From IMG/VR virus record IMGVR_UViG_3300017963_000081: a DNA stretch of 49,260 bases, one strand, 5' to 3'. Position numbers and translations under genes: made by a program. Below, one piece after another: positions 3,274 to 48,594 of the stretch. The notes beneath the pieces were generated by a model that had not been told where the DNA came from, did not search any database, and was given only the letters and a program-made list of their open reading frames with translations. Origin of the DNA: a virus. How positions within the stretch are numbered: the stretch's first letter is position 1; every line of letters begins with the position of its first letter.

Positions 3274-3627
3274 GTGGACGATGTGTACAAAGTTTCACTA
3301 GTAGACAACCCTACATTATCTATCCAGTTACCCGACGGGAACTCCCTGGCCGTCGACCTTTTCGAGGCTCAAGATACCGTCGAATCCCTGGAAAGGAAAG
3401 TTGTGGAATCCGAAGGGTCGGAGAAGGACCTCTACGCAGCCCTCCGAGACTGGGTTCGGGAGAAATCGGACGGGTGCGAAATCACGCTGTCACAAGCGTC
3501 GCTTCTCCACCGGGCGATTGTGTATAATTACTTGGATTTCAAAAAAAAAGTCGCGACGCGGTTTCCGTTGGATACTGGTATCGGCTCGACCCCCGAACCC
3601 TCAGCAGAGCAGACATCCGACTTTTGA
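3274..3627 (+). CDS. Hypothetical protein, 117 aa
   Basis: GTG start 7 nt after the AGGAGA RBS (ggataggagacgcaacGTG). Confidence 0.5.
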   Translation: MDDVYKVSLVDNPTLSIQLPDGNSLAVDLFEAQDTVESLERKVVESEGSEKDLYAALRDWVREKSDGCEITLSQASLLHRAIVYNYLDFKKKVATRFPLDTGIGSTPEPSAEQTSDF

Positions 3628-5402: not shown

Positions 5403-5785
5403 TGCCTATTTTCTCCGCACCCACCGCGTCCATCGGACAACTAAGTCACGGCGCTCATGGGGACTTCCAACCCACGACGACCGAAGGCCGTCCCGTCCGG
5501 TGGGGTCACGTCCGAGAAATCGACCGCAGAGCACACGTCGGCACACCGGCATGGTATCGGCTCCACCAGGAGACGCGATTGCAACACCTCAGTGCGTGGC
5601 GACGGCTCCACATGCTTCGCACACATCAAGGGGTCCGCCGCGAAGCAAATCGAAGGGGCGTTTCACCATCTTCCGACACGACGGTCGAGCAGAAGGTGGA
5701 CATGGCGAAGACGTTCGAACAACGGGACGCGAAACGGTCGCCGCGTAAGCGATCCAAACGGAGTAGCAAACGGGCGAAGTCCTAG
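5402..5785 (+). CDS. Hypothetical Arg/His-rich protein with K/R-rich C-terminal tail, 127 aa
   Basis: TGATG stop/start coupling to the upstream gene, and the TAG stop abuts motif copy 1. The composition is odd and two other frames are also open, so coding is uncertain. Confidence 0.35.
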   Translation: MPIFSAPTASIGQLSHGAHGDFQPTTTEGRPVRWGHVREIDRRAHVGTPAWYRLHQETRLQHLSAWRRLHMLRTHQGVRREANRRGVSPSSDTTVEQKVDMAKTFEQRDAKRSPRKRSKRSSKRAKS

Positions 5786-5837
5786 GTTTTCTCTCCAGAG
5801 ATCCCGGCGGGAACTTCAAAAATAGACAGGTGTCACA
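5786..5837 (+). promoter_or_regulatory. Conserved intergenic module, copy 1
   Basis: gTTTTCTCTCCAGagaTCCCggcGGGAacTTCAAAAATaGACAggTGTCacaATG. Confidence 0.8.
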
Positions 5838-9789: not shown

Positions 9790-11178
9790 ATGCCGTCCCT
9801 CGAATCTGCGCTGCAATCTGCGGCGGAACAAACCACGTTTGAAAGCGTCCGTAAGGGAATCCGCGACTCGGGCGGAGCCGGTTCCGCGTTGCAAGTCTAC
9901 CAGATGGGGTTCTTCGGAGCCTTTGGTCCGACTGGTCCGGAGTGGATGAAGAAGATTTGGGAGGAAGACCAAGACTTGGTAGGGCAGTTTCGCGGTCTTG
10001 AGCACGTTGCTATTCCACGTGCAGAGTGGAGGGGGAAACGTGCGACGTTTTGGAATCATTACATGGAGCTTCAGCCGGCAGATGCGCTTCGCGGGAACCA
10101 AGACACCGGAAATTGTACATCGTGGTCAGGTAGAGCAATGCTCAATTGTTGTCTCGGCGCGGACATCAAGAAGCGGTTGGAGCGGCAAAAGTGGCCCGGT
10201 GCTCGAATCGGAACAGCGATGATGTACGCCAACCGAGGGCATAGCGGAGCTGGCATGACGTTGGCTCGGGCGATTGACGCTGTTGCGAACAAATACGGGA
10301 TCAGTATCCAAAAGTCATACTGCAACGGCCAATACGACCTGACGGCGGAAGATGCGGACGAGGGGTACGGCGTAAGCTGGTGGCGCGGCGTTCCGGATTG
10401 TGTCCTGGAAGAAACACGACAGCACAAGCTGTTAGCCTGGGACCGTGTAACGGATGAAGACAAGTCAATGTCTTACCTCCTTGACGGTCGATTTCTGTTT
10501 CACGGTTCGCAGTACACAGCCCGTCCGTCCGGAAACCTGATTTCTTCTCTCCAGAGCATCGGCGGACATGCGCAAGCCGTCCTCGGGTACGATGATACCG
10601 ACGAGTTCAAACAGTGGTACAAAGAAAATACCGGCCAGACGTTGAACGACTACGTAGTAATCCACGATCAAAGTTGGGGGAATTGGAACCAGATCCCCGG
10701 TTCGAAATGGCCAGACCATCTTTGGGGTCAGAAGCCTGAAGGGGCATGGGTTGTAACGGGTCGCGATTACATGCGAATTGTGAACCAGTGGGGGGATCAA
10801 TACGCCGCGTTGGACGTTGGTGGTTTTCCAGACGACAGTCCACCACCTCCCCCGCCTCCGCCACCTGCGACGTGGTTGGCTGTTGCTGTCTGGGATGTCA
10901 GTCCGACTACCGGCGTAGTGGGCCAGATAATCGAGTGGTTCGTGAACGGGGAAAAGAAAGCGACAGTCTCGATGAATGCTTCGCAAGAACGAACGACATC
11001 GGATGATGCGAAAATTTCGGAAAGCCTTAAAGCGGGAGATGCTGTCGAGGTTCGTATCAAAGCGATTACCGCGTCCGGCGTTACGAGCGAACCCGCAATC
11101 GCACAAGGGACGGTGGAGGAAAACGGGGAGCGTCCTTTACCTCCTCGAAATGTTCGACTGGCTTTCACCAAACGTTGA
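9790..11178 (+). CDS. Papain-like (C1-type) cysteine peptidase with a poly-Pro linker and a C-terminal Ig/FN3-like module, 462 aa
   Basis: Catalytic-type motifs NQDTGNCTSWSG (Gln/Cys), GGHAQAVLGYDD (His) and HDQSWGNWN (Asn-Ser-Trp-Gly). PPPPPPPPP linker. AGGAG RBS. Confidence 0.7.
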   Translation: MPSLESALQSAAEQTTFESVRKGIRDSGGAGSALQVYQMGFFGAFGPTGPEWMKKIWEEDQDLVGQFRGLEHVAIPRAEWRGKRATFWNHYMELQPADALRGNQDTGNCTSWSGRAMLNCCLGADIKKRLERQKWPGARIGTAMMYANRGHSGAGMTLARAIDAVANKYGISIQKSYCNGQYDLTAEDADEGYGVSWWRGVPDCVLEETRQHKLLAWDRVTDEDKSMSYLLDGRFLFHGSQYTARPSGNLISSLQSIGGHAQAVLGYDDTDEFKQWYKENTGQTLNDYVVIHDQSWGNWNQIPGSKWPDHLWGQKPEGAWVVTGRDYMRIVNQWGDQYAALDVGGFPDDSPPPPPPPPPATWLAVAVWDVSPTTGVVGQIIEWFVNGEKKATVSMNASQERTTSDDAKISESLKAGDAVEVRIKAITASGVTSEPAIAQGTVEENGERPLPPRNVRLAFTKR

Positions 11179-11213
11179 CCGTCCCGTCGGGGACCTGGAA
11201 AGGAGATGCAGAA

Positions 11214-11438: not shown

Positions 11439-13706
11439 TTCCTGAACTTGTTCCCATGCAGCGGTCGCGTAAGGGTGCGGGAGCAGATCAGGGCGTAGGA
11501 TAACCACCCGGTCTGCTTCCAACCCCTTCGCGCGGTGAATTGTGCTGAGGATGTAGCCGCCTTCGGTCGCTGCTTCGTCGCTTAGAATCCCGTTGAGCTT
11601 CTTTCGGTAGTCCTTGGCGTTCTTGCAGTCCGTCACCGTCATCTTGACGCACTGTACTCTATCTTCCAGGGCGGCTATCGCCATCTGCGGAGCGTCGTTG
11701 CGGATCAGATGAGCTTCCGCGTGGGCTTGGTACTGGTCTAGCACGTTGATGTGGTTCTCCCAGCTCGTTTCCTTGCCAAAAGCCTTCTTCGCCAGACCGA
11801 CGAATTCGGGAATCATATCCCGACCCCGGACGTAGACGGGGATTTGCTGTGCGAATAGGCGGTTGAACAGCTCGAACAGCGGAGCGTTGGTCCTGCAAAG
11901 CACCATCGCCGGCGGTTCGATATCCTCAATCTCCCTGGAGGTGAAAGCAGCAATACCGTCCGGGGCGTTCGGTGCAGCTTCCAGGTCGGGGACGATAGTC
12001 TGCGCGAGACGGACGACGTTCTTCGGACACCGCCACGAAACCGTCAGCGGCAGCTCGATTAGTCCACGTTCCGTTGCGAGGAGACGTTCCCGAAACCGGG
12101 GAATGCTTTCCGCGTCTGCACCTCTGAAGCCAAAAATAGAATTGCCAGTTGCTATTTCATCTGCGATGTACAAACGTCGACCCCCTTCGGTCGGCGCGAC
12201 TTGCAAACTCCAAACTTCGCCTACATATCTTTTTCTCGTAAACTGGAGTGGTTCCCAGGAACAATCACGAGGGCCTTTGACTCGCACGACCATCATGCAG
12301 CCATTTAGCAGGTTGTACCCGCGACACATGAAAGAGTAATAGCCGACATGTTGGGCGCTTCCTTTTTCCCACATAGGATACCGTGGGTGTCGACCAAACT
12401 CTTGAAGAAGGGCACCGATCCTTTCCGGATTCTTCAAGTCTCGTTCTAGTTCTTCCTCCCAAGATCGGTTCGTCCATTCGAACATGGCCCTTTGCGGGAT
12501 TTGGTACTTCAGGGAGAGCAACCACTCCAGTTTGCGCGCTTCTTGGCGAGTAGGGAATACATCCAAAACCCAAAGACAATCCACCTTTTCTCCGCGAGCA
12601 CGGACGCCCGGTCCAAACCCACAATCCATTTGAAGTTGTGTTGTTCCGATTCGCGGAATATCGCCTGACAACATTAGGTAGACCGCGTGTAGCTTCTTCC
12701 CTTTTTTCGGATCGAAACGTACAAGCCACCGATGTTCGAGTGTTGTGCATGTTCCGTTTCCGTGAATCAAATCGCCGTTGTGTTCGTGGTGTTCGATTTT
12801 TTCTATCTTGCGTCCTTGTGTATTATGGCCCGGAGAATATGTGTCTTTGCTTTTGTAGGTCGCTAACTGGTCCCCGACTTTCAAGTCTTGAATCGGCACG
12901 TAGCCGCGCCCTGTCGCCAAAACCTTAGTCCCCCTGGGTTGGCATTGCTCCGGATCGCCGATCACAATGAACCGTTTCGAAAACTGCGATAGCAATTGAC
13001 GTTGACAGACGTTCAGGTCTTGGGTCTCATCGACGCCCATCGCTCCGAATGGTGCGGGTTTCAACTTGAGCTGGATAGGAAGCCAGCACATGTCATCGTA
13101 ATCGACGCGGTCGGTCAACCGTCGCGACTCTTCGATGCACATGGAGGCCCGCTCCGCAATCTTCTCTTCGTCTTCCAAAGCCATGCCGTAATGCTTCACT
13201 AATGCGAGAATCTCCTCCGGGGTTTCGACAAGACAGCCCTTGGCCAGGCCGACCACCTTCTCCAGGTCGTAGATTAGCTCCCAGTCTTTTATTTCCAGAG
13301 ATCCGTCGGAACGGCCAAAACACTCGCGGTATATGTCGCGGATTTTGTTGAAGTTCACACCGTCGACGGCGTATCCCTTGTCCTTCAACAGTCGAAACCC
13401 GAGAGAGTGGACCGTGCAAGCGAGGGTGGACGGCCCGACCCGGCCTTGCAGCTCGGTCGCGATGAGCTTGGAGAAAGCGACGATTGCTTTCCGGCTCGAT
13501 TTGACCTTGGAGAAACCGTCAACAATCGTGGTTGTCTTTCCAGTCCCAGCACGCGCAATCCCAAGGATATGCTGGTCGGAATTGCTCATTGCGTCCCACA
13601 AATCTTTTTGTTGCTTTGTTGGTTTGTAGGACTTGCGAACTTTCTTCGCGGCGGGGGTTGCTACTTTCGCTTTGCGTCGGATTGTCTTTCGTTTGATTGT
13701 GGCCAC
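11364..13706 (-). CDS. SF1 UvrD/PcrA-like DNA helicase, 780 aa as encoded, interrupted by an intein
   Basis: Walker A GIARAGTGKTTT and Walker B VDETQD. Motif III is split (VIGDPEQ | intein | SIFGFRGAD). Motifs V/VI are STIHRAKGLEADRVVIL and VAITRAKQALFI. Confidence 0.85.
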   Translation of the reverse strand: MATIKRKTIRRKAKVATPAAKKVRKSYKPTKQQKDLWDAMSNSDQHILGIARAGTGKTTTIVDGFSKVKSSRKAIVAFSKLIATELQGRVGPSTLACTVHSLGFRLLKDKGYAVDGVNFNKIRDIYRECFGRSDGSLEIKDWELIYDLEKVVGLAKGCLVETPEEILALVKHYGMALEDEEKIAERASMCIEESRRLTDRVDYDDMCWLPIQLKLKPAPFGAMGVDETQDLNVCQRQLLSQFSKRFIVIGDPEQCQPRGTKVLATGRGYVPIQDLKVGDQLATYKSKDTYSPGHNTQGRKIEKIEHHEHNGDLIHGNGTCTTLEHRWLVRFDPKKGKKLHAVYLMLSGDIPRIGTTQLQMDCGFGPGVRARGEKVDCLWVLDVFPTRQEARKLEWLLSLKYQIPQRAMFEWTNRSWEEELERDLKNPERIGALLQEFGRHPRYPMWEKGSAQHVGYYSFMCRGYNLLNGCMMVVRVKGPRDCSWEPLQFTRKRYVGEVWSLQVAPTEGGRRLYIADEIATGNSIFGFRGADAESIPRFRERLLATERGLIELPLTVSWRCPKNVVRLAQTIVPDLEAAPNAPDGIAAFTSREIEDIEPPAMVLCRTNAPLFELFNRLFAQQIPVYVRGRDMIPEFVGLAKKAFGKETSWENHINVLDQYQAHAEAHLIRNDAPQMAIAALEDRVQCVKMTVTDCKNAKDYRKKLNGILSDEAATEGGYILSTIHRAKGLEADRVVILRPDLLPHPYATAAWEQVQESNLRYVAITRAKQALFILGDKFGL
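12141..12944 (-). mobile_element. Intein (268 aa, residues 255-522 of the helicase precursor)
   Basis: Starts with Cys (CQPRGTKVLATGRGYVPIQDLKVGDQL, block A-like), has TTLEH (block B TxxH) and ends ...YIADEIATGN followed by Ser+1. Removing it restores GDPEQSIFGFRGA. Confidence 0.75.
13287..13325 (+). promoter_or_regulatory. Degenerate copy of the conserved module, antisense inside the helicase CDS
   Basis: TTTTATTTCCAGAGATCCGTCGGAACGGCCAAAAC versus copy 10 TTTTCTCTCCAGAGATCCCGACGGGAACCCCAAAAT, about 28 of 36 positions by eye. Confidence 0.4.
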
Positions 13707-13787: not shown

Positions 13788-13985
13788 CTAGTCTTTTTCC
13801 TCTTCAAGTCGAAACTCACGACGGGTTAACCATTGTCCGTTGTCCAGAATGTACAACGGGGATAAGTTGAACCCGCTGGGTTCCCGGACGTCTACGATTC
13901 GTTGGTGTCGCGCGAACCCTTCATTGATTACGACAACTACCCGTCTACCGATCAGGTTTCGCGGGTCTAAAAGATTCTCAAGCAT
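13788..13985 (-). CDS. Hypothetical protein, 65 aa
   Basis: ORF track. Overlaps the upstream gene by 19 nt and is followed by a terminator. Confidence 0.5.
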   Translation of the reverse strand: MLENLLDPRNLIGRRVVVVINEGFARHQRIVDVREPSGFNLSPLYILDNGQWLTRREFRLEEEKD

Positions 13986-14173
13986 TCTGCGCTTTCCTCC
14001 GAATTACGTGGATAATCAGGATTTGGGGGAACGTAGAGATCAATATCGGTTCCCCCGCACTTCGGACACCCCTCCGTAACGGCGCGTTCTGCGCTTTGGG
14101 TTGTCCAGAATCGTTTCCCGCATTCCATGCACTGGAATGTCGGGGTCCTAGGACGTCGCTTTTTCGATGACAT
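13967..14173 (-). CDS. Zinc-ribbon protein, 68 aa, with a basic N-terminus (MSSKKRRPRTP)
   Basis: CxxC...CxxC pattern (CMECGKRF...CPKCGG). AGGGGG RBS. Confidence 0.55.
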   Translation of the reverse strand: MSSKKRRPRTPTFQCMECGKRFWTTQSAERAVTEGCPKCGGTDIDLYVPPNPDYPRNSEESAECLRIF

Positions 14174-14194: not shown

Positions 14195-14221
14195 GGGGGG
14201 TGCGGTTTCCCGTCACCCCCC
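14195..14221 (-). terminator. Possible terminator hairpin (minus strand)
   Basis: 8-bp stem ggggggtg/cacccccc, followed on the minus strand by TTCTTTT. Confidence 0.35.
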
Positions 14222-14245
14222 TGGAAAGATAACCTACCCCCTAGA

Positions 14246-14929: not shown

Positions 14930-14957
14930 ATTATAACCCCCTCTTAGAGTTTGTCAA
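14930..14957 (-). promoter_or_regulatory. Near-consensus sigma70-type promoter (minus strand): TTGACA-N16-TATAAT
   Basis: The minus strand reads ctaTTGACAaactctaagagggggtTATAATcgg. -35 is at 14952-14957 and -10 at 14930-14935. Confidence 0.6.
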
Positions 14958-17134: not shown

Positions 17135-17163
17135 TTGACAGAGACCCTAACAATATATAGTAT
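17135..17163 (+). promoter_or_regulatory. Near-consensus sigma70-type promoter (plus strand): TTGACA-N17-TAGTAT
   Basis: gggTTGACAgagaccctaacaatataTAGTATgt, about 25 nt downstream of box A, the same spacing as on the other arm. Confidence 0.6.
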
Positions 17164-17711: not shown

Positions 17712-17954
17712 ATGACAAAAATTGATCTTCCATCGCGACGGCGTATAGACAAGCAGCAAGACAAAGTCGTGAAAGACCCTACCGACTGGTTCTTCTGCTC
17801 TCGTCCGTTGTCGTCCATCAACCCGCGACTCGTCCGCGCCGAGAAAGACTTTTGGGAAGGCCGACGCTGGACCTTCATAAAAGTCTCCATCAAATATGCG
17901 GACGGTTCCGTTGTTGAAGGTTCGCAGCGGTTGAAGGCGGATCGGGTGCTCTAG
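17712..17954 (+). CDS. Hypothetical protein, 80 aa
   Basis: AAGGAG RBS before ATG 17712. The ORF-track extension to 17457 overlaps the previous gene. The TAG stop abuts motif copy 2. Confidence 0.5.
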   Translation: MTKIDLPSRRRIDKQQDKVVKDPTDWFFCSRPLSSINPRLVRAEKDFWEGRRWTFIKVSIKYADGSVVEGSQRLKADRVL

Positions 17955-18017
17955 GTTTTCTCTCCAGGTTCCCGACTGGGCATCTGAAAATTGACAATTG
18001 TCTAGAAAGGTGATGAT
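17955..18017 (+). promoter_or_regulatory. Conserved intergenic module, copy 2
   Basis: gTTTTCTCTCCAGgtTCCCgactGGGcatCTGAAAATtGACAATTGTCtagaaaggtgatgatATG. Confidence 0.8.
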
Positions 18018-21468: not shown

Positions 21469-21536
21469 TCTGTTTTCTCTCCAGTAGTCCCGGTGGGACA
21501 CTCAAAATTCTACAACTGTATAGAAAGGGTTCGACA
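21469..21536 (+). promoter_or_regulatory. Conserved intergenic module, copy 3
   Basis: tctgTTTTCTCTCCAGtaGTCCCggtGGGACacTCAAAATtcTACAacTGTAtagaaagggttcgacaATG. Confidence 0.8.
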
Positions 21537-22200: not shown

Positions 22201-24054
22201 ATGGTCAGAAAACTCGAAACGAAGCTAGATGAGACGATCCGCCGACAGCGTCCGTTGCTCCCTCCATACTCGGAACCATACGTTGCGGTGGATACGGAGA
22301 CGACGGGTTTGGACGTGTCGCACAAAGACGTCGCTTTCGCAGTGTCGGCGTGTACGCACAACGGGGAACGCTACTTTTGGCAATGGGATATAGACCCGAA
22401 TACTCGTCAGGCGTCGATTTCGTCGCAAATGCGAAGTGAGATTAAAGGGTTGATTGATGCGTATCCTGATATCGTGTTCCACAACGCTAAGTTCGACTTG
22501 CAGGCGTTAGCGACAATTGACCTCATTGTTCCGAATCGCGTGATTATCCATGACACCGTGGTTGCGGCGCATGTTTTGGGGGAAGAGACGAAGGGGTTGA
22601 AAGATCTGGCGTTGCTCTACCTCAACATCCCTGCGGATGATGAATCGGAGCTACGCACTGCGGTGGTCAAAGCGCGGGCGTTGCTCAAGAACGCGGGTTA
22701 TCCTCGCGGGGAGAAAGTCCAATATGACTACTGGGCACCGTTTTTCTTCCGTGACAAAGTTCCCGAATTTCGGGAAGTGTTGAAACGCTACGCAATCCGC
22801 GACGCGGAGCGAACCGCTTTGCTCTGGCGTGGTCTAGGCCCCTTGCTGGACAAAGAAGGTTTAGTCTTCCAGTACCATCGCGAGATGGCGGTCGTCCCGA
22901 TGATCGACTTCATGGAACGTGAGGGGGTTCCGTTTAAATCAAAGCTGGCGCATAAACGACACGGCGAGCTGCGTCACCGCTGCAATGTTCTTTGTGACCA
23001 GATGAGTGTCTTTGCAGGCTTCGACGTGAACCCCCGCTCCCCCGATCACTTGGCGAAGATGCTTCACGACGTAGCAGGGCTTCCCGTAATCTCCAAAACT
23101 CCGACCGGAAAACCTGCAACGGATGCAGCAACGATTCAAGACCTGTCGGATCGGTATTCCTGCGAAGCGTTGCAGGACCTTCAGGAATTCAAACAGTGCA
23201 ACAAGGCGGTGACGGACATTGAACAATACTTAGGCAAACAGCACTGGACAAAAGTTCACTTCCATTACAACACGGTCGGCACGAAGACGACTCGATTTTC
23301 TTCTACCAACCCCAACGGTCAAAACATCGCAAAGAGCGCAGCGGTTCCCCTGCGGGATTTGTTTGGTCCTCCGATGGGCTGGCGTTGGCTCGACGTGGAT
23401 TATGATCAATTGGAGCTGCGCATCTTTGCGGAGCTATCGCAAGAACGCGTGATGATGGAGGCATTTTCCAGAGGTAAAGACCTGCATCAAATCACCGCAG
23501 ACGGTATCTCGAAAATTGCAGGTAGGGAGGTTGACCGTGCCCTCGGCAAGCGGGTCAATTTCGCGTGGATTTATGGAGCGCGTCCTAAGAAGCTTGGCAT
23601 TCTGATCGGCGTAGAAGCAGACGCTCTTGATCTTGCAATGCGGACAACCTACCCCCGCGCGGTCGAATGGTTCAACGAAGTGCAATCACGCGGGCGTCGC
23701 GAAGGATTTGTCTACAGCGGTTTCGGGTTTCGAATACCCGTTCCTCCGCAGGAAGCGTATAAAGGAGTCAATTACATCATCCAATCGACGGCGGGCGACG
23801 TGCTCAAGAATGCAATCATCCGAATCCACGATTATCTGACCCGACGAAAACTGTATGACAGTATTCGGCCATTGCTGACAATCCATGACGAACTGGTTTT
23901 CCAGATTCACAAAAGTGTGTCCGAAAGTCACCTGCGGGAGCTTTGCATCATCATGGAAATGAGCGGTCGTGATGTGGGCGTGCATACCCCGGTCGGTGCA
24001 AAAATCATTTCTGGCGGTCGAGGTTGGTCCAAAGGGCGTACCTGGAAACCATGA
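22201..24054 (+). CDS. Family A DNA polymerase with 3'-5' exonuclease domain, 617 aa
   Basis: Exo motifs VAVDTETTGL, FHNAKFDLQAL and YAIRDAERT. Pol motifs DYDQLELRIFA (A), RALGKRVNFAWIYG (B) and LTIHDELVF (C). GGAGG RBS. Confidence 0.9.
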   Translation: MVRKLETKLDETIRRQRPLLPPYSEPYVAVDTETTGLDVSHKDVAFAVSACTHNGERYFWQWDIDPNTRQASISSQMRSEIKGLIDAYPDIVFHNAKFDLQALATIDLIVPNRVIIHDTVVAAHVLGEETKGLKDLALLYLNIPADDESELRTAVVKARALLKNAGYPRGEKVQYDYWAPFFFRDKVPEFREVLKRYAIRDAERTALLWRGLGPLLDKEGLVFQYHREMAVVPMIDFMEREGVPFKSKLAHKRHGELRHRCNVLCDQMSVFAGFDVNPRSPDHLAKMLHDVAGLPVISKTPTGKPATDAATIQDLSDRYSCEALQDLQEFKQCNKAVTDIEQYLGKQHWTKVHFHYNTVGTKTTRFSSTNPNGQNIAKSAAVPLRDLFGPPMGWRWLDVDYDQLELRIFAELSQERVMMEAFSRGKDLHQITADGISKIAGREVDRALGKRVNFAWIYGARPKKLGILIGVEADALDLAMRTTYPRAVEWFNEVQSRGRREGFVYSGFGFRIPVPPQEAYKGVNYIIQSTAGDVLKNAIIRIHDYLTRRKLYDSIRPLLTIHDELVFQIHKSVSESHLRELCIIMEMSGRDVGVHTPVGAKIISGGRGWSKGRTWKP

Positions 24055-24080
24055 CCGCAATTTTCAAGGGAGGTGTTACG

Positions 24081-24857
24081 ATGCTAAACGTATGTTCAGC
24101 TAGGTACTCTGTGATGGAACGCGGCGATTTGCGGGAGGTTCCGCTACCGTCTGCTGGTGATCGGAGTCGCTGGAAGGGAATCCAACACGGTGAACTCATG
24201 GACACTATTGAAGGCGTCCTGAAGGATGATTACAAAATGGGGATGGTGGATGAACGCTACGCGGTGTCTCCCAATCAAGCGAAGCTGGTCGGCGGGTTCA
24301 AGCTTCGTGAGCTAAAGCGGAAGCAACCCAAGCAGGTCATGGGTCTTCCACACAAGACGGAGCTTTGTATGGGCATCCGTCATGGGAACGATTCGACGTT
24401 TGCGTTGACGTGTTCTCTCGGCGCGTCTGTTCTTGTGTGTGAGAACGGTCTGATCATCGGAGAGTACACGGCCAAACACCGTCACTCTTCCAAGCTGAAG
24501 CTTGAAGATTACATTCGCGAAACGTTCGAAGGGTACTTTGAAAATCTCGGCGTCCTTGGCGATACGCTGTCTGGTTTGGCGGAGCGAAACGTCACTCCCG
24601 CTGACCACGACGCGGGGATTTTGCAACTAGCACGGACGGGATGTTTGCCTTGGAGACTGGCCGGCGATGTGGACAAGCTTTGGAGAAAGACCCTGGAGGG
24701 AAAGGGTCCCCACAACGGAGCATTCGATGGGCGGACGGCGTGGGATTGGTACAACCACGTCAATGACGTTATTAAGCGCACCCCGCCTATTGGCCAGCTT
24801 CGGCGTCTCCATCAGGCGTACCGAATTAGCTCTGGTCCATTTGCAACCGCTACGTGA
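24081..24857 (+). CDS. DUF932-like phage/plasmid protein (tentative), 258 aa
   Basis: GGGAGG RBS before ATG 24081 (alternative ATG 24051). The family call rests on general resemblance only. Confidence 0.4.
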   Translation: MLNVCSARYSVMERGDLREVPLPSAGDRSRWKGIQHGELMDTIEGVLKDDYKMGMVDERYAVSPNQAKLVGGFKLRELKRKQPKQVMGLPHKTELCMGIRHGNDSTFALTCSLGASVLVCENGLIIGEYTAKHRHSSKLKLEDYIRETFEGYFENLGVLGDTLSGLAERNVTPADHDAGILQLARTGCLPWRLAGDVDKLWRKTLEGKGPHNGAFDGRTAWDWYNHVNDVIKRTPPIGQLRRLHQAYRISSGPFATAT

Positions 24858-24870
24858 TAACACACCTTTC

Positions 24871-24944
24871 GGTTTTCTGTCCAGTGGCCCTCCGGAGAAA
24901 TCCCCGGAGGGTCCATCTCTTTCTGAACCTTTAGGGAGGCGACG
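24871..24944 (+). promoter_or_regulatory. Conserved intergenic module, copy 4 (variant with an 8-bp hairpin)
   Basis: gTTTTCTGTCCAGtggCCCTCCGGagaaatccCCGGAGGGtccatctctttctgaacctttagggaggcgacgATG. Confidence 0.7.
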
Positions 24945-27026
24945 ATGGTTCAAATCGTTTCACAACGCACACTTAGAGATACGCCGGAACCGCTCCGACC
25001 CTACGTGTTCCACGGTGCGGATTTCGAAAAAACGACAACGAAGGAAGTGAACGGTTTTTGTCCGATCTGCAAAGCGGAGACGAAACGAAAGCGAATGGGA
25101 GGCTTGTATGTCAATACCGAGAAAGGAGTTTGGAAATGCGTGCATTGTGAAAAAGGCGGCAATATCTCCGACTTCCAAAGAAACCTCTATCAGAGCTACA
25201 AACCCCTCACCGAGGCTACGCATTACGAGAAGCTTTCCGAACTCAAACCCCCTTGCACCCCCGACGCTTTGAAAGCCGCTGGTCTTGTTTGGGATAACTT
25301 TCTAGACCGGTGGCTTATCCCCTATTATGATGGTGACGGACGCTTCAAATCGGTCCGCGCATGGAAACCTCCCACCGGGAAAATCTACACAACCCCCGGC
25401 GACAAGCAGACTCTTTGGAATGTTCAAGCCCTAACAGGCAAGGATACACTGTACCTAACAGAAGGGGAGTGGGACGCTATCGCATTGGCCCCTCTACTTG
25501 AACGAAATGAGGGGGTCATTTCTTCTCCAGGAGCACACTTCCAACCTCGCTGGTCGCCCTACTTCAGCGACCGAAAAGTCTACCTGCTATACGACAACGA
25601 CAAGGCAGGAGAGACGGCGGCCAAGAACGCTGCATTTGTTCTCCAGGGATCCGCACGGTCGGTCCACGTTATCAAGTGGCCGCCCGATTGGAAAACAGGA
25701 TACGACGTTCGCGACTACGTCAAAGAGAACCTTGAGCTGGACGTCGAACCCAAACAGATTCTGGAAGGCTTACGCTTTCTCAGCGTCGTTCCGGAAACCG
25801 GATACAGTCCGCTCAGCAACGGGAAGCTTGAAAAGCCCCTCTACAAACCGCTTCCGGATAAGCGACCGACTTACAGTCAGATCCTCAAAGAGGTTCAAGA
25901 AACCTATGCGTTCGGCGACCCTCAAGTCTACGACACCCTTGCGGTGATCTACGGAACCATTTGGAGCAACTACATCTCCGGTGATCCAGTCTGGATGTTT
26001 ATTGTCGGCCCTTCGGGCTGTGGAAAAACCACCTTCGTTGCAACTGCAAGTAGAGCACACGTAGTGAAGTTTCAAAGTTCGCTCTCCCCCGGCGGCCTGG
26101 TCTCCGGTTTCAAACCGAAGGACGGGAGCGACCCTTCCCTCATTGCACAAATCTTGGGCAAGACCTTGATCGTCAAAGACTTCACCGAAGTGTTGGACGA
26201 ACCGGAACAAGTTCGCGACCGAATCATCGCAATCCTTCGAGGCGGTTTCGACGGACGCATCGACCGCGACTACGGAAACGGGGTGTCCCGAAAGTACGAA
26301 GGATTCTTCAGCGTCGTGGCGGCGGTTACGGACAAAATCCACTCAATCCAACGCGCCGATCTAGGGGAACGGTTCCTGAAATATCAGATGCTCTCAACGA
26401 GGCGACAACAATTCGCATTCCGCGAACAAATTCTAGCCGCAGTCCGCGCAACCACCTCCCAACACGACGTGGATCATTACATCCGCGAAATGGTCCGCGA
26501 GCATTTCAACCATCTGCCCGATGCAATCCCCGAAGTTCCTACGTGGCTCATAGACAAAGTCAGCCCCCTGGCCGATCTCGTCGAAGCAATGCGTGGAAAA
26601 GTCGTCCGCTCTGGGGCGTTAGTTTCCCATCCGCCATCCGGCGGGGTAGGAACCCGCGTCGCAAAGCAACTCGTCAAGCTTGCACAAGGAATATCACTTG
26701 CATGGGGAAAGCGGGCTATTCCCCGATCCGTCTATCCAATCCTTCGCAAGTGTGCTCTCGATACCGCCTTCGGCTGGCAGTCAGAAATCATCACGCATCT
26801 CCTAAGTCATGGTGTGCAAACGATTACCGAAGTCAGGAAGGCCCTCGGGATGCCCCGCTCGACCTGCGAAGTCCGCTTGAAAGACCTTCGGTATTTGGGC
26901 ATAGTCAGCGAGATCGAACTCCCCCCGGAGGATCGCGGCAGCGGTGGCCGTGCTCGCCAATCGCAGATCGCGTACGATATTGTCCCGGAGGTTCGAAAGC
27001 TTTGGAAGGAAATCGCGGACAAGTGA
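24945..27026 (+). CDS. Bifunctional DNA primase / P-loop helicase, 693 aa
   Basis: Zn finger CPICKAE...CVHCEKGG. TOPRIM motifs LTEGEWDAIAL and LLYDNDKAGE. Walker A FIVGPSGCGKTTF. C-terminal winged-helix-like region. Confidence 0.8.
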   Translation: MVQIVSQRTLRDTPEPLRPYVFHGADFEKTTTKEVNGFCPICKAETKRKRMGGLYVNTEKGVWKCVHCEKGGNISDFQRNLYQSYKPLTEATHYEKLSELKPPCTPDALKAAGLVWDNFLDRWLIPYYDGDGRFKSVRAWKPPTGKIYTTPGDKQTLWNVQALTGKDTLYLTEGEWDAIALAPLLERNEGVISSPGAHFQPRWSPYFSDRKVYLLYDNDKAGETAAKNAAFVLQGSARSVHVIKWPPDWKTGYDVRDYVKENLELDVEPKQILEGLRFLSVVPETGYSPLSNGKLEKPLYKPLPDKRPTYSQILKEVQETYAFGDPQVYDTLAVIYGTIWSNYISGDPVWMFIVGPSGCGKTTFVATASRAHVVKFQSSLSPGGLVSGFKPKDGSDPSLIAQILGKTLIVKDFTEVLDEPEQVRDRIIAILRGGFDGRIDRDYGNGVSRKYEGFFSVVAAVTDKIHSIQRADLGERFLKYQMLSTRRQQFAFREQILAAVRATTSQHDVDHYIREMVREHFNHLPDAIPEVPTWLIDKVSPLADLVEAMRGKVVRSGALVSHPPSGGVGTRVAKQLVKLAQGISLAWGKRAIPRSVYPILRKCALDTAFGWQSEIITHLLSHGVQTITEVRKALGMPRSTCEVRLKDLRYLGIVSEIELPPEDRGSGGRARQSQIAYDIVPEVRKLWKEIADK

Positions 27027-27048
27027 CCTGTTGACCCCCTCCGCATGG

Positions 27049-27129
27049 CGTGGTATTATCTCTCCAGTAGTCCTTGACGGGACATTCGAAATTTTGAATT
27101 GTCCGCATCAAATACGGAGGGAGTTAATC
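27049..27129 (+). promoter_or_regulatory. Conserved intergenic module, copy 5
   Basis: CGTGGTATTATCTCTCCAGTAGTCCttgacGGGACatTCGAAATTttGAATTGTCcgcatcaaatacggagggagttaatcATG. The first 25 nt are identical to copy 9. Confidence 0.8.
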
Positions 27130-28738: not shown

Positions 28739-29377
28739 ATGGCAGACGCGAATCTCGAACGTCTTGGCAAACCGTTGTCCACTAAAAAACGCCGGGGCCG
28801 CCAACCCAAACTCGAATGGTTCCGACGGTACGACCCCGAAGGATATGCCGCCGCGTTGAAGTTCATCGAACTCGGTGCGTACGACTACGTCGTCTTCGAA
28901 GCGATGGGAGTAACCGCCGCGACATTCTACCGCTGGCTAGAGCGCGGAGAAGAGGATAACTGTCCATCTGTATACCGCGAATTCCTTGAAGACGTGATGC
29001 GGGCAAGAGCACGCGCCCGCGTTCTTGTCGAGATAGACGTGCGTAGAGATAAACCCGATTTCTGGCTCCGCTGCGGCCCCGGTCGTTCCCGTCCCGGTCG
29101 CGAAGGTTGGACCGAAACCCGCGAGATGGACATCCGCGTCAATGGGCAATCCGCAGCAACCGTTGTTGTCGAAGACCAGGTCTCCCAAGAGGAGCTGGCA
29201 GAAACGCTCCGCGTGGTCCAGACCCTTGGTTTCGTCTCCAGTGACCCCGACGGGAATTCCGAAGAATTAGGGGATGAAACAGGGGTTGACAGCACCCCTA
29301 ATTTAACCGATAATGGAAAGAATGGGGATCCTTCGGATAACAACGGAAAACGAAAAGGGAGGAAACGCGATGCGTAG
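28739..29377 (+). CDS. terS: Terminase small subunit candidate, 212 aa
   Basis: HTH-like GVTAATFYRWLERGEE, position directly upstream of terL, GGGAGG RBS. Confidence 0.6.
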   Translation: MADANLERLGKPLSTKKRRGRQPKLEWFRRYDPEGYAAALKFIELGAYDYVVFEAMGVTAATFYRWLERGEEDNCPSVYREFLEDVMRARARARVLVEIDVRRDKPDFWLRCGPGRSRPGREGWTETREMDIRVNGQSAATVVVEDQVSQEELAETLRVVQTLGFVSSDPDGNSEELGDETGVDSTPNLTDNGKNGDPSDNNGKRKGRKRDA

Positions 29378-29594: not shown

Positions 29595-31030
29595 CGATGG
29601 TCGCAATCACCGAAGCAATCCGAAAAGCTTTCACCCTTCGGCTGACGAAGTACATCGCACATCAACCCACAATCAAGCAACGAGTTTTCCTCGCACTGAC
29701 CCCGTATGAAGAAGTCCTGTTCGGCGGCGCTGCAGGTCCTGGAAAGTCGGACGCTCTCCTGATGGCGGCTTTGCAATTTGTCGACGTCGCGGGTTATCAC
29801 GCATTGATCTTGCGACGCACGTATGCGCAGCTCTCCAAATCCGACGGTCTCATCCCCCGCTCCCACGAATGGTTGCACGACACCGATGCACGTTGGAACG
29901 GCGGCGGAAAGGTTTGGTCCTTCCCGTCCGGAGCTACGCTATCCTTCGGACATGTTCAGTATGAAGACAACAAGTATGACTATCAATCAGCGGCTTACAC
30001 CTTCATCGGTTTTGACGAGCTGACGCAATTCACCGAATCACAATACCTCTACATTGGGTTTTCCCGACGTCGTCGTCTCCGCGATATGTCGGTCCCGCTC
30101 CGCGTTCGGTCAGCAACTAATCCGCCGCCAGACCAGCGGGGTCGTTGGGTCCGGGATCGCTTCGCGATTCACAAGGACGAGCGGTCGGGGGAGTTCATCG
30201 GACACGAGCCGAACCGTCCGTTTGTCCCTGCCAAAATCTCCGACAATCCGTATCTGGATCAGGAGGAATACGAGACGGCCCTTGCCGAGCTGGACCCGGT
30301 CACCCGCGAGCAATTGCTTTCCGGAGACTGGGAGATTATGCAAGTCGGTCGGATGCGAAAGTCGTGGGCACGCTACTACAACATCACCTCTGACGCATAC
30401 CAACTACTGGACCCCGTCACCGGTCGTGGTTTTCGCAATGTGAAAAAGCGAGACTGCCATCACTTCCAAATCTGCGATCCCGCAGCGTCTGCCCGCGAAG
30501 GTCCTGGAGACGAACAGATCTGGGAGCGGAAGATGCCGTCCCACACGGTGATCGGGACGTTCGCAATGACCCCGGACGCGGACCTGCTTTGGATCGACAA
30601 CCGCAGGTTTCAAGGCGAAGTCCCAGAGGTTCAAGACGCTTTGCTGGAGGAGTATTCCAAATGGCAGCAATGCACCCACGTCGGGATTGAAAAGAGCGGT
30701 CTTGGCATCGGTGTCTTCCAATGGGCGAAGCGCAGCGGTCTTCCCGTCCGCGCGTTGTCCCCACAGTCGCAAGACAAACTAGTCCGGGCAACCGACTTCA
30801 TCAACAGACTGTACGAGGGGATGGTTTATTTCCCGAACGCTCCCTCGGATTGGCGTAGGGAACTATTCGACGAGCTTTTCGCGTGGACCGGTCACCCGCA
30901 CGAACAAGACGATCAGATTGATGTGGCCGGTTATGCGGGACGTGAGGTGACCCGGTTGCGAGGACCGATTCCGATCCGTAGACGGATTCGACAGATCGAG
31001 CGACCCGTCGTCGCGGGCGGACTGCGTTAG
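29585..31030 (+). CDS. terL: Terminase large subunit, 481 aa (alternative ATG 29597)
   Basis: Walker A GGAAGPGKSDALL and Walker B FIGFDELTQF. C-terminal RNase H-like nuclease region. The TAG stop abuts motif copy 6. Confidence 0.8.
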   Translation: MALTMVAITEAIRKAFTLRLTKYIAHQPTIKQRVFLALTPYEEVLFGGAAGPGKSDALLMAALQFVDVAGYHALILRRTYAQLSKSDGLIPRSHEWLHDTDARWNGGGKVWSFPSGATLSFGHVQYEDNKYDYQSAAYTFIGFDELTQFTESQYLYIGFSRRRRLRDMSVPLRVRSATNPPPDQRGRWVRDRFAIHKDERSGEFIGHEPNRPFVPAKISDNPYLDQEEYETALAELDPVTREQLLSGDWEIMQVGRMRKSWARYYNITSDAYQLLDPVTGRGFRNVKKRDCHHFQICDPAASAREGPGDEQIWERKMPSHTVIGTFAMTPDADLLWIDNRRFQGEVPEVQDALLEEYSKWQQCTHVGIEKSGLGIGVFQWAKRSGLPVRALSPQSQDKLVRATDFINRLYEGMVYFPNAPSDWRRELFDELFAWTGHPHEQDDQIDVAGYAGREVTRLRGPIPIRRRIRQIERPVVAGGLR

Positions 31031-31088
31031 TTTTCTGTCCAGGGTTCCTACGGGACATTCCAAAAAAGACAATTGTCTAGGAGAAAAA
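31031..31088 (+). promoter_or_regulatory. Conserved intergenic module, copy 6
   Basis: TTTTCTGTCCAGgGTTCCtacGGGACatTCCAAAAAAGACAATTGTCTaggagaaaaagtgATG. AGACAATTGTCT is a perfect 12-bp palindrome. Confidence 0.8.
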
Positions 31089-36308: not shown

Positions 36309-36518
36309 TTAACCGCGCGGAGGTACTTTTCCCAGGTCCAAACCGTAAGGCCCTTTTAACCGCCGCGCCTGTCTTTGGTATCGTATCGACTTTGCCATTT
36401 GTTTTCGGACGTCAGAGCCTCGTTGGAATACACTTGGGTGCGTTCGTTTTGACGTCCCGTGTCGCGAAAACCTCTGGACAGTTTTGACAACGCTCCGACG
36501 TTTCAGTTTCTTGGCCAT
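36309..36518 (-). CDS. Small basic protein, 69 aa (MAKKLKRRS...)
   Basis: ORF track. Its SD (GGAGAG) is the reverse complement of the CTCTCC core of motif copy 7. Confidence 0.5.
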   Translation of the reverse strand: MAKKLKRRSVVKTVQRFSRHGTSKRTHPSVFQRGSDVRKQMAKSIRYQRQARRLKGPYGLDLGKVPPRG

Positions 36519-36572
36519 AGTTATCTCTCCAGTAGTCCTGACGGGACGTTCAAAAATAGACTAGTGTCTAAT
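36519..36572 (+). promoter_or_regulatory. Conserved intergenic module, copy 7. Orphan copy lying between two minus-strand genes.
   Basis: TTATCTCTCCAGtaGTCCTgacGGGACgTTCAAAAATAGACtagtGTCTaat. Confidence 0.75.
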
Positions 36573-36726: not shown

Positions 36727-36987
36727 TCAACTCCGTAACTGATCCTCTTGGTTCAACTTCAGGATGAACCGACCTATCGCCTCCTCCGACGTGTAGATCG
36801 TTCCTCCAACCCTTGCGGTTTCCAACCGGACGCCCCGGATGCCGCGTTTGGCCCATTTCCGGATGGTGTCAACGCTATGCGGTCCCCCCGGAATCTTTGC
36901 GTTAGCGTACCGCAATCGCACAAGCCGTTCTCTATTTGCGTCTAGCATTTTGTCCACTCCGTACCAGGTTTGTCCACTTTTATCCAT
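36727..36987 (-). CDS. DUF1580-type helix-turn-helix DNA-binding protein, 86 aa
   Basis: SVDTIRKWAKRGIRGVRLETARVGGTIYTSEEAIGRFI matches the G.RLE...VGG...TS.EA..RF signature I associate with planctomycete DUF1580 proteins. Confidence 0.6.
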   Translation of the reverse strand: MDKSGQTWYGVDKMLDANRERLVRLRYANAKIPGGPHSVDTIRKWAKRGIRGVRLETARVGGTIYTSEEAIGRFILKLNQEDQLRS

Positions 36988-37075: not shown

Positions 37076-37207
37076 ATGATGGGAAAAACGATGCGTCGTC
37101 GGATGCGGAAACGGGTTCGAATGACGCCGAAATTCAAGCCGCCCGCTGGCGGCAGCGCTCTTCAGCGACCGGTATCGACCCGTCGCCAAATCGGTCGGAG
37201 GATGTGA
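37076..37207 (+). CDS. Small Arg/Lys-rich protein 1 of a tandem trio, 43 aa (MMGKTMRRRMRKRVRMTPKFKPPAGGSALQRPVSTRRQIGRRM)
   Basis: Below the ORF-track cutoff. GGAGG RBS. The stop overlaps the next start (TGATG). Confidence 0.45.
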   Translation: MMGKTMRRRMRKRVRMTPKFKPPAGGSALQRPVSTRRQIGRRM

Positions 37208-37359: not shown

Positions 37360-37375
37360 TTGATCGGAGGATGTG

Positions 37376-38858: not shown

Positions 38859-38917
38859 GTTTTCTTTCCAGGTAACAAACGGAAGGCCGCCGAGCGGCCC
38901 TGCAAGAGGGAAGTCCG
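38859..38917 (+). promoter_or_regulatory. Conserved intergenic module, copy 8 (diverged; hairpin sequence replaced)
   Basis: gTTTTCTTTCCAGgtaacaaacggaaGGCCGCcgaGCGGCCctgcaagagggaagtccgATG. Confidence 0.6.
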
Positions 38918-41004: not shown

Positions 41005-41040
41005 GGGCGGGTGAGGCGAGGGACCTTGCCCGCCCTTTTT
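41005..41040 (+). terminator. Rho-independent terminator after the capsid gene
   Basis: gggcggg(tgagg)...(ccttg)cccgccc stem followed by TTTTT. Confidence 0.8.
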
Positions 41041-41103
41041 CGTGGTATTATCTCTCCAGTAGTCCCCGACGGGACGTCCGAAAACTAGTGAACAGGTGTA
41101 CAG
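41041..41103 (+). promoter_or_regulatory. Conserved intergenic module, copy 9. Starts 1 nt after the capsid terminator.
   Basis: CGTGGTATTATCTCTCCAGTAGTCCCcgacGGGACgTCCGAAAACtagtgaACAggTGTacagATG. Confidence 0.8.
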
Positions 41104-46966: not shown

Positions 46967-47323
46967 ATGGGCCACTTACTCGGCGAGCTTCGCGTCAACG
47001 ATGACAACCTTCTTCACAAAGGAGAAGACAACGCGGTCCAACTGCGCGGGCTTCGCAACACTGACGACCCCGCAACGTTCGTTGACGACGGGACGTTAAC
47101 GTTCACATTGAAGGACATGGACGGCGATGCTGTCTCGGGAGCTGAAAACATCAGCATGACATACGAGACAGACTCCGATGGAGTATACGTTGGCCTTGTT
47201 CAGCAAAGCGTCAGCTTGACAATACACACTCACTATTTCTTGGAGGTTTCTATGTCGGACGGGACCGATACCGGTTTCCGCCGACGACGACTTTGGTGTA
47301 ATTATCACCGGTCCCGCCCCTAG
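46967..47323 (+). CDS. Hypothetical protein, 118 aa
   Basis: ORF track. The TAG stop abuts motif copy 10. Confidence 0.5.
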   Translation: MGHLLGELRVNDDNLLHKGEDNAVQLRGLRNTDDPATFVDDGTLTFTLKDMDGDAVSGAENISMTYETDSDGVYVGLVQQSVSLTIHTHYFLEVSMSDGTDTGFRRRRLWCNYHRSRP

Positions 47324-47389
47324 ATTTTCTCTCCAGAGATCCCGACGGGAACCCCAAAATTTAGTGTACGTTTGTATACTGGAGAAAAG
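47324..47389 (+). promoter_or_regulatory. Conserved intergenic module, copy 10
   Basis: aTTTTCTCTCCAGagaTCCCgacGGGAacCCCAAAATttagtgtacgtttgtatactggagaaaagATG. Confidence 0.8.
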
Positions 47390-47866: not shown

Positions 47867-48594
47867 TGCCCGATTACACAGTAACCGCGAGAAATCCAAA
47901 CTTCCGAAGGTTGCTTCGCAGTCTGCCGGCGATTTTGTCGGGTGATGCTCCCGATCCGAAGGGGCTTCGCCGGTCCTTTCTCGCTGCGCTGTTATACAAT
48001 GCGTTCAAACGGACGCATGAAGCGTATTTGACGAAAGCGGACGGTGGAGCCGACGAGTACGGTGAATCGTGGGATCCGCTATCCCCGAAAACCATCGCAT
48101 CCCGTCCGATCACTCAGCAAGATCAAAGACAGTACGGAGTACGGAAGGGTCAGCGAGGGCTACTAACCGCGGAACAAAACCGTAGGTGGAAAGGTATCTT
48201 TGCATCTGTCTATTTTCGAGAGCTTACGTCAGGGACTCTGGAGAAAGAAGCTAAAGCCGTCGCGGGTCGCATAGCGTGGGCAATCCTCAAATCGCAGGGT
48301 GCGAAAACCCGGATCGGAACCCTATCGAAACGCGACGTCCCGATTATGATCGACAAGGGACGGTTGGAAAGGTCCTTCCGACCCGGAGCGTTGACGAAGA
48401 ACGCCTACCGCCGATACAACCGGGACCAGGTTGCAGAGATTCGCGAGCGCAGCATCCGTTTCGGTTCCAGCGTCCCGTATGCAAAGCGAGCCGCCAAGAA
48501 GCGTCCTGTCATCCCAACTGCGAAGCAGTTTCGGGTTGATATTTTGCGAGACGCTCGTGACAGGTTGATTGACCGACTTCGCGAAGAGGTGTGA
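47866..48594 (+). CDS. Virion morphogenesis / head-tail joining candidate, 242 aa
   Basis: TAATG overlap with the upstream gene. C-terminal FGSSVPYAKRAAKKRPVIP resembles the HK97 gp10 / Mu gpG-type ending. Confidence 0.45.
   Translation: MPDYTVTARNPNFRRLLRSLPAILSGDAPDPKGLRRSFLAALLYNAFKRTHEAYLTKADGGADEYGESWDPLSPKTIASRPITQQDQRQYGVRKGQRGLLTAEQNRRWKGIFASVYFRELTSGTLEKEAKAVAGRIAWAILKSQGAKTRIGTLSKRDVPIMIDKGRLERSFRPGALTKNAYRRYNRDQVAEIRERSIRFGSSVPYAKRAAKKRPVIPTAKQFRVDILRDARDRLIDRLREEV
48193..48252 (-). promoter_or_regulatory. Degenerate but long copy of the conserved module on the minus strand, antisense inside CDS 47866..48594
   Basis: The minus strand reads TAGcTTCTTTCTCCAGAGTCCCtGACGtaagctcTCGAAAATAGACAGaTGcaaag. 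By eye about 45 of 58 positions match copy 1. Confidence 0.55.

Follow-up and report, generated by a model that had tools for sequence, protein, structure and literature searches.

The phage contig analysed here, IMG/VR record IMGVR_UViG_3300017963_000081, is a complete metagenomic sequence of 49,260 bases, referred to in full as the window. It carries a family of repeats in which a 12 nucleotide (nt) pyrimidine-rich box, with the consensus TT[TA]TCTNTCCAG, is accompanied by a hairpin. In most copies this is a short recurrent stem-loop, hairpin 1. At three sites an unrelated stem-loop takes its place, one of these being the hairpin at 24886-24914, 5' of the primase-helicase gene. The repeat family and the 24886-24914 hairpin are real and non-random, and the anatomy and positions of the family and the strength of the replacement hairpins are directly observed. 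The box may mark a phage-specific transcription start, with the hairpin as a 5'-proximal stem-loop of the messenger RNA (mRNA). This reading is held tentatively, at somewhat less than even confidence.

The box sequence TTTTCTNTCCAG has 19 matches in the window at no more than one mismatch, against 0.69 expected, and none of 100 shuffled sequences reached 19. Exact matches are found mostly on the plus strand (11, against 3 on the minus strand). The 8-mers TCTCTCCA and CTCTCCAG are among the commonest of the genome, with 10 on the plus strand and 2 on the minus. The complete cassette has the order (TAG)G, box, 1-3 nt, hairpin 1 (GTCCC-GAC-GGGAC), A-rich spacer ACTTCAAAAA, hairpin 2 (TAGACA-NN-TGTCTA and variants), Shine-Dalgarno site and ATG. 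Most sense-strand boxes start 1-30 nt past the upstream stop codon, the box at 41048 lying 79 nt past it with a terminator in between, and they are positioned 50-80 nt upstream of the Shine-Dalgarno site and ATG. Spacing of the boxes along the genome is roughly 2-5 kb. A covariance model made from six cassette copies, run unfiltered over the window, found eight strong cassettes (32-70 bits) and five degenerate copies:

5783..5834, plus strand: canonical cassette with the box at 5787-5798, hairpin 1 at 5802-5812, the A-rich spacer and hairpin 2 at 5825-5834 (70.4 bits)
17952..18004, plus strand: canonical cassette (65.9 bits)
21469..21522, plus strand: canonical cassette (68.6 bits)
27052..27112, plus strand: canonical cassette of the TTATCT subclass with a 4 nt loop, overlapping a sigma-70-like TTGACC-17-TATTAT (with TG) at 27031-27059 (31.9 bits)
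31027..31077, plus strand: canonical cassette, box directly 3' of the terminase stop codon (62.8 bits)
36517..36570, plus strand: canonical cassette, antisense between two minus-strand open reading frames (ORFs) (68.8 bits)
41044..41098, plus strand: canonical cassette of the TTATCT subclass with a 4 nt loop, TGgTATTAT overlapping the box start (32.5 bits)
47321..47374, plus strand: canonical cassette (61.8 bits)
29226..29268, plus strand: degenerate copy (TTTCGTCTCCAG + CCCC-GAC-GGG) inside the end of ORF 28739-29377 (25.7 bits)
3312..3346, plus strand: degenerate copy, box TTATCTATCCAG + CCC-GAC-GGG (17.2 bits)
11158..11210, minus strand: degenerate copy, ..TTTCCAG-G-GTCCCCGACGGGAC (17.1 bits)
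13283..13339, plus strand: degenerate copy, antisense inside the UvrD-like helicase gene, with one hairpin 1 base pair deleted on both arms (10.3 bits)
48203..48253, minus strand: decayed copy, antisense inside plus-strand ORF 47854-48594, keeping the box, a broken hairpin 1 and TCGAAAATAGACA (16.8 bits)

The 36517-36570 cassette has no Shine-Dalgarno site or ATG downstream on the plus strand. Antisense copies within coding sequence, at 13283-13339(+) and 48203-48253(-), may be antisense promoters or decayed relics. Altogether there are four to six minus-strand copies. In two places the reverse complement of the box, CTGGAGAGATAA at 36517-36570 and CTGGAAAGGAGA at 11158-11210, is the Shine-Dalgarno sequence of an opposite-strand gene, giving GGAGAG for the minus-strand ATG at 36518 and AAGGAG for the plus-strand ATG at 11214. 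At each of these sites the same DNA therefore seems to be in use on both strands. An exact box is also present at 9425-9449(-), inside ORF 9072-9701, with a hairpin-like TCCCGTCGGA upstream of it rather than downstream.

At three sites only the box aligns to the covariance model and the hairpin beside it has another sequence. The features concerned are:

24873..24884, plus strand: box TTTTCTGTCCAG, 16 nt past the stop of ORF 24024-24857
24886..24914, plus strand: hairpin GGCCCTCCGG / CCGGAGGG(T)CC, starting one base past the box
24934..24947, plus strand: Shine-Dalgarno site GGGAGG and ATG of the primase-helicase gene (24945-27026)
38860..38899, plus strand: box (38860-38871) and unrelated hairpin GGCCGC-CGA-GCGGCC (38885-38899), 13 nt past the box
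14195..14232, minus strand: box TTATCTTTCCAG (14221-14232) and unrelated strong hairpin GGGGGGTG..CACCCCCC (14195-14221), about -24 kcal/mol

In the 24886-24914 hairpin, G86-G95 pair with C04-C14, with T12 bulged. This makes ten pairs, 8 of them G-C, around an 8 nt loop (AGAAATCC), and the core, CCCTCCGG-N8-CCGGAGGG, is at 24888-24911. The predicted energy is about -21 to -22 kcal/mol and the tail is pyrimidine-rich (ATCTCTTTCT). Downstream of the minus-strand hairpin at 14195-14221 come CTTCTTTT, a Shine-Dalgarno site and the start codon (ATG) of a 68 residue zinc-ribbon ORF (13967-14173). Neither of these two sites has an A-rich spacer or hairpin 2, and in both the stem begins 0-1 nt downstream of CCAG. 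Folding energies were computed for the 32 nt that follow each box and set against those of 14,066 background windows from both strands, which have a median of -4.9 kcal/mol. The sites at 24873 (-21.2 kcal/mol) and 14221(-) (-20.5) are below all of the background windows, and the site at 38860 (-12.2) is in the lowest 2%. The first two hairpins are also among the most stable local hairpins in a genome-wide scan. Copies of hairpin 1, at -3 to -8 kcal/mol, are ordinary against the same background, and only the three replacement hairpins stand out.

An earlier note on this DNA had listed ten copies of the element, all of which are present, including the hairpin at 38885-38899; the replacement hairpin at 14195-14221(-) and the five degenerate copies are additional to its list. 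The note had regarded the hairpins after the boxes at 24873 and 38860 as compensatory variants of the others. These differ from hairpin 1 in stem length, loop size and stability, and the second also in its offset from the box (13 nt against 1-3 nt). Together with the 14221(-) hairpin they cannot be aligned with hairpin 1, and they are replacements rather than products of compensatory evolution. The broader statement that stem identity is not conserved goes too far, as 8 of the ten copies share a TCCC/GGGA stem. The occurrence of three unrelated hairpins beside the same box indicates that a stem is wanted there. It should not be mistaken for covariation.

Hairpin 1 has 4-5 pairs and loops of GAC, GGC, GGT or TAC, four copies having a 4 nt loop in place of 3 nt. 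Apart from loop length, the confident copies vary in only three respects. C-to-T changes give G.U pairs in 27052, 31027 and 36517; these are all three of the single-base changes in the 5' arm, and each keeps G.U on the plus strand. A.A replaces the outer G-C in two strong copies, 5783 and 47321, a two-sided change that breaks pairing, and 13283 has lost one base pair. The sole compensated double change in hairpin 1, an outermost T-A pair, is in the degenerate copy at 3312 (17 bits). Hairpin 2, for example at 31067-31078, 17993-18002 and 36558-36571, is a near-perfect palindrome of 0 to -7.6 kcal/mol that abuts or contains the Shine-Dalgarno site, and it could be a duplex operator instead of an RNA hairpin. 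Two-sided changes that keep pairing are found in hairpin 2, as G-C to T-A in 21469 and 47321 and as ATTCGA/TTGAAT in 27052.

The copies were aligned with the covariance model. Pair counts are from this alignment and from per-copy folds, MAFFT having put the extra base of hairpin 1 outside the loop. The alignment is fitted to the model, takes in weak hits and is itself biased towards the structure. The paired share of its cells is 85.4%, compared with 71.8% in shuffles. The covariation score of the same alignment is 0.139 against 0.074 in shuffles, none of 500 reaching it, and slid controls are far lower. This signal comes mainly from hairpin 2, hairpin 1 being mostly invariant or changed on one side only; pair 22-39 is invariant. 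The model found no homologue of the cassette in 16 related loci, and DNA pattern scans of IMG/VR and 185,579 reference genomes gave single chance-level matches, none with the full motif. With no homologues to add, the covariation cannot gain power. Compensatory evolution of the hairpin is not established, and the copies that can be aligned are not yet proof of RNA folding.

The earlier note had further concluded that the element is read as a single strand rather than as a duplex protein-binding site. The unrelated stems after one box and the C-to-T changes that keep G.U pairs agree with this, as do the 3 and 4 nt loops, since such a difference would be poorly tolerated by a dimeric duplex-binding protein. 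It gains no support from the ordinary energy of hairpin 1, the lack of strand asymmetry and the single compensated pair. Inference of the folding strand from the G.U pairs was rejected, as the summed hairpin 1 energies of the two strands do not differ (-63.0 and -62.3 kcal/mol).

In the preferred reading, the 12 nt box would be the core of a phage-specific middle or late promoter, made of one compact block without a -35 element. It would be read by host RNA polymerase redirected by a phage factor, or by an unrecognised polymerase. Transcription would start at the A or G of CCAG, and the hairpin 0-4 nt downstream would be a 5'-proximal stem-loop shielding the mRNA from 5'-end-dependent decay. 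In the canonical copies hairpin 1 together with hairpin 2 would present the Shine-Dalgarno site. Any stable stem at the hairpin position would do, which would account for the unrelated hairpins at three sites as independent replacements. The 24886-24914 hairpin would form the 5' leader of the message for the primase-helicase and, with its pyrimidine-rich tail, may also attenuate read-through from the polymerase operon. The AG of CCAG, where transcription is predicted to start, is at 5797/8, 17966/7, 21483/4, 24883/4, 27066/7, 31041/2, 36531/2, 38870/1, 41058/9 and 47335/6. Promoter activity, start site and stabilising role are all predictions from the sequence.

The boxes at 27056 and 41048 overlap an extended -10, TGgTATTAT (27054-27059 and 41046-41051), the former having also TTGACC at 17 nt spacing. 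With the usual 7 nt between a -10 and the start, transcription would begin at the A of CCAG (27066 and 41058), and the hairpin would come 1-4 nt into the RNA. In the late region, 31-49 kb, there are 5 sigma-70-like sites against 8.9 in shuffled sequence, and none is strong. The sole strong terminator of that region lies just before a box:

41005..41035, plus strand: strong intrinsic terminator (stem then TTTTT) downstream of the gene for the major head protein and 13 nt before the box at 41048

The perfect copy at 36517 is antisense within a minus-strand operon and has no start codon after it, and an element working only in sense mRNA would not be expected to persist there. No RNA polymerase or sigma factor was detected in the window by Pfam, PHROGs, solved-structure or motif searches, and the 1035 residue ORF matches no solved structure and lacks a DxDGD-type motif. 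This is consistent with a reprogrammed host polymerase. Near-perfect sigma-70 promoters are present elsewhere, at 14957..14930(-) (TTGACA-16-TATAAT, 12/12), 17135-17163(+) (TTGACA-17-TAGTAT) and 29286-29314(+) (TTGACA-17-GATAAT), and these are probably an early promoter class. The consensus sites around 14.9-17.2 kb, in the presumed early region, would fit an early class used alongside a phage-specific one.

Several features weigh against a promoter with a 5' stem-loop. There is no conservation more than 4 nt upstream of the box, unlike in ordinary host promoters, and a convincing -10 element is absent from most copies (TAGGTTTTCT..). A -35/-10 pair at 16-18 nt was found at the 27056 copy only; 41048 has just the extended -10 and the others have no conserved upstream hexamer. 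At 14221(-) and 24873 the terminator-like hairpin and T-rich tail right after the presumed start could abort transcripts. Some copies point antisense into genes (11158-11210(-), 48203-48253(-), 5063(-) and 9425(-)), with the hairpin of 9425(-) upstream of the box, and the reverse complement of the box doubles as an opposite-strand ribosome-binding site for the ATGs at 36518(-) and 11214(+). The canonical hairpins 1 and 2 are weak, at 0 to -8 kcal/mol, and therefore little protection is expected from them. Conservation of the hairpin 1 sequence suggests protein recognition rather than structure alone. For the box itself no polymerase or factor was identified among the phage proteins, and its start site is a prediction.

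Base pairing of the box with ribosome-binding sites was also considered, as several predicted folds pair the two. The mean energy of the box against gene start regions is -6.5 kcal/mol, compared with -5.5 for genes without a box, only 4 box-linked genes being captured. The start regions of box-less genes pair equally well and an anti-Shine-Dalgarno role was dropped as uninformative.

In two contigs syntenic with the window, L093 and L095, the genes run PolA, DUF932-like protein, primase-helicase and DUF4417, and in L093 the terminase is also within the fetched stretch. The cassette is absent from both. They share with three further relatives (L014, L015 and L114) a motif of a pyrimidine run, CAG and purines (YnTTCAGAGA / YnCCAGAAAAA) that is almost restricted to the plus strand, following 33 of 278 pyrimidine runs on the plus strand and 4 of 503 on the minus strand in the pooled set. 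Copies lie in spacers as well as within ORFs, where the reading frame varies. In the two syntenic contigs the positions are:

L095: 1711, 2673, 3909, 7019, 8003, 10404, 13308, 16217, 17098, 20419, 21362
L093: 1826, 7310, 14762, 16415, 18690, 21647

The three intergenic copies in L093 follow terminator-like hairpins. A hairpin as the family-wide partner of this motif was rejected, there being no enrichment of hairpins after 33 sites in the relatives. The box of the window resembles the motif (TTTTCTCTCCAGAGA and TTTTCCTTCAGAGAG), and the motif may be the ancestral form of the box. In the window the generic motif has no strand bias, so that homology of the two is only possible. On a wider interpretation, the box would be the local version of a motif belonging to an uncultured phage group with PolA and primase-helicase and without a recognisable RNA polymerase. 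The motif would then be a new compact promoter class or a priming or nicking signal in single-stranded DNA, with an unrecognised reader, and the obligatory downstream stem-loop would have been gained here. This is an unlikely interpretation.

An RNA element in read-through polycistronic transcripts is one of the alternatives to a transcription start. The box and a UCCC-GAC-GGGA hairpin would be bound by protein, either for nut-like antitermination or for cleavage in the pyrimidine box that leaves a hairpin-protected 5' end. Lambda nut sites consist of boxA plus a boxB hairpin. The cassette is similar in having a linear pyrimidine-rich element of 12 nt, a short spacer (1-3 nt) and a conserved 5 bp stem with a 3-4 nt conserved loop, located in operon leaders. 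Hairpin 1 is kept in sequence, beyond pairing, and its C-to-T changes retain G.U on the sense strand. The presence of three small arginine-rich ORFs at 37076-37513 would also fit. In lambda, however, there are 2 nut sites, and sites of this type are few, located after an early promoter and before terminators, whereas here there are at least 13 copies, with sequences unrelated to those of nut sites. Several of these are antisense to local genes, including the perfect copy 36517, and copy 41048 is past a terminator, where read-through transcription would be rare. Few plus-strand terminators need suppression, there is no Rfam match and complementarity between box and Shine-Dalgarno sites is no better than in box-less genes. 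Such a read-through element is considered distinctly unlikely. It is also fairly unlikely that the 24886-24914 and 14195-14221(-) hairpins are plain intrinsic terminators or attenuators, adjoining the box by chance and not equivalent to hairpin 1. Both have G+C-rich stems and pyrimidine-rich tails as in Rho-independent terminators, are 3-5 times more stable than hairpin 1, have larger loops and lack the A-rich spacer and hairpin 2. A consensus scan flags both as terminator-like. The first, listed with its stem and its tail, CATCTCTTTC, lies 29 nt after the stop at 24857; the second is followed by the tail noted above. Yet the tail after 24914 (CATCTCTTTCT) passes a loose scan (5 T in 8) with no run of at least 4 T, while the clear terminators at 41005, 13771(-) and 17661 have T5-T8, and hairpin 1 has no T tail. 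That two of the stablest hairpins of the genome would lie 0-1 nt past the same box by coincidence is unlikely, and a Shine-Dalgarno site and ATG follow 10-20 nt downstream.

Two further explanations place the signal in DNA, and both are regarded as improbable. As a strand-specific signal in single-stranded DNA, with the plus-strand hairpin extruded, the element would be a nicking site or a priming site for the primase-helicase on the lagging-strand template. The phage encodes a T7-type primase-helicase, the roughly 2-5 kb spacing would be suitable and the strong copies stay on the plus strand even within minus-strand gene blocks (13283 and 36517). The motif of the relatives is likewise nearly confined to the plus strand, and it is present in ORFs in more than one frame. 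The canonical copies nevertheless have a fixed place relative to the Shine-Dalgarno site and ATG, suggesting a role in gene expression, and four to six copies are on the minus strand. Hairpin energies have no strand asymmetry, the motif in the relatives is without downstream hairpins (33 sites, median percentile 0.47) and its generic form is unbiased in the window (15 against 17). Alternatively, hairpins 1 and 2 would be palindromic operators in duplex DNA (GTCCCG-N-CGGGAC and TAGACA-N2-TGTCTA) for dimeric phage regulators of a neighbouring promoter. Their near-perfect symmetry and conserved sequence would fit, as would the ordinary predicted stability, hairpin 2 included, and the equal energies on both strands. 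Candidate DNA-binding proteins are a DUF1580 protein (36727-36987(-)) and a DUF4417 protein (27323-28708), the DUF4417 domain being often fused to ParB-type folds in phages (bioRxiv 10.1101/2025.10.10.680097). Against operators are the half-site spacing of hairpin 1, which is 3 or 4 nt, the pairing of hairpin 2 despite two-sided changes (21469, 47321 and 27052) and the replacement of the palindromes by unrelated inverted repeats at three sites.

A transcription start followed by a 5' stem-loop has parallels in well-studied phages. T7-type late promoters are followed by a 5' stem-loop leader, as in the phi10 leader, and 5'-terminal stem-loops such as that of ompA stabilise the message. The arrangement here is similar: a compact block recurs at intervals of 2-5 kb, usually in the same orientation and in many cases right behind the preceding gene, and a hairpin lies a few nt from the presumed start, then a Shine-Dalgarno site and ATG. 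It differs in that no T7-like RNA polymerase was found in the window, the box is unrelated, the start is only predicted and the hairpins of the canonical cassettes are far weaker. The late promoters of T4 have TATAAATA at -10 and no -35, and are used by host polymerase with phage gp55/gp33. In both there is a short single block with nothing conserved upstream, serving middle or late genes, with no polymerase of the phage's own detected here and separate sigma-70 early promoters. The box, however, is rich in pyrimidines where the T4 element is AT-rich, the window yielded no gp55-like factor and the function proposed is a prediction. Hairpin promoters are used by the virion RNA polymerase of N4, and hairpin 1 resembles these in its 5 bp stem, its 3 nt loop with a usually purine centre and the adjoining conserved sequence. 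In contrast, no giant virion RNA polymerase was found with Pfam and PHROGs, late as well as early genes are involved and the conserved block is upstream of the hairpin. T4-type phages have PeSL cassettes, repeats that combine a terminator with an early promoter (PMC2839356, PMC4122927). As in the definition of that type, the cassette is a multi-copy intergenic repeat joining a promoter-type motif and a stem-loop, and its paralogous copies could promote recombination. PeSL have a sigma-70 early promoter and a terminator stem-loop, unlike the box, which is not sigma-70, and hairpin 1, which has no T tract and is downstream of the box.

The first 123 bases of the window (1-123) are repeated exactly at 49138-49260, and the genome is therefore circular or terminally redundant, with a length of 49,137 bp. 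Replication and recombination genes encode a family A DNA polymerase, the Toprim primase-helicase, a UvrD-like helicase, a PD-(D/E)XK nuclease and an Erf-like annealing protein. Other genes encode the DUF4417 protein, the large terminase subunit, a portal-like protein, the major head protein and tail proteins. There are no tRNAs in the window, and the whole window has 0 matches in Rfam 15 at gathering score. Megablast of 12 kb of the window against isolated phages gave no nucleotide match. The best matches of the primase-helicase in isolated phages have 26-28% identity over about a third of the protein, and a search of 5.8 billion proteins returned the contig itself and then nothing above 34% identity. 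By these comparisons the phage belongs to a lineage without a close or isolated relative. A Planctomycetes host is hinted at by the DUF1580 domain, whose family was described from Rhodopirellula. Nothing usable was found in the literature on Planctomycetes promoter consensus or on pyrimidine-rich phage promoters.

Some further features of the window and its relatives were noted. In the UvrD-like helicase (11364-13706(-)), ~460 residues separating the N-terminal from the C-terminal helicase domain are unassigned, with a weak Hint_2 match from residue 255 (E = 0.14), so an intein is possible. The arginine/lysine-rich ORFs at 37076-37513(+) are three in tandem, of 43-51 residues, and come shortly before the block of structural genes; GGAGGATGTGATG precedes each of the last two, and none has a family match. 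The commonest plus-strand 8-mers, above those of the box, are GACGCGGA (13 against 5 on the minus strand) and CGACGCGG (11 against 1), whose frequency may be due to codon usage. An intergenic array at 20479-20753 of contig L094 has ~30 tandem 9 nt units of the YACCTA/GCCCA type and may be iteron- or origin-like. The relatives also have another repeat between genes, AATA..CCAC..CCCCCTAT(A/G)ATAT, which stops a few bases short of an ATG, one copy preceding the polymerase gene:

L093: 3407-3448, 6533-6574, 16888-16929
L095: 7052-7108, 20123-20179

This repeat may be another promoter class, possibly with leaderless messages.

The interest of the box lies mainly in the recognition machinery, which is not seen among the detected proteins of the phage. 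If the box is a promoter, then the cassette would be a compact and portable regulatory unit, and it would offer a first way into how transcription is programmed in an uncultured lineage of phages.

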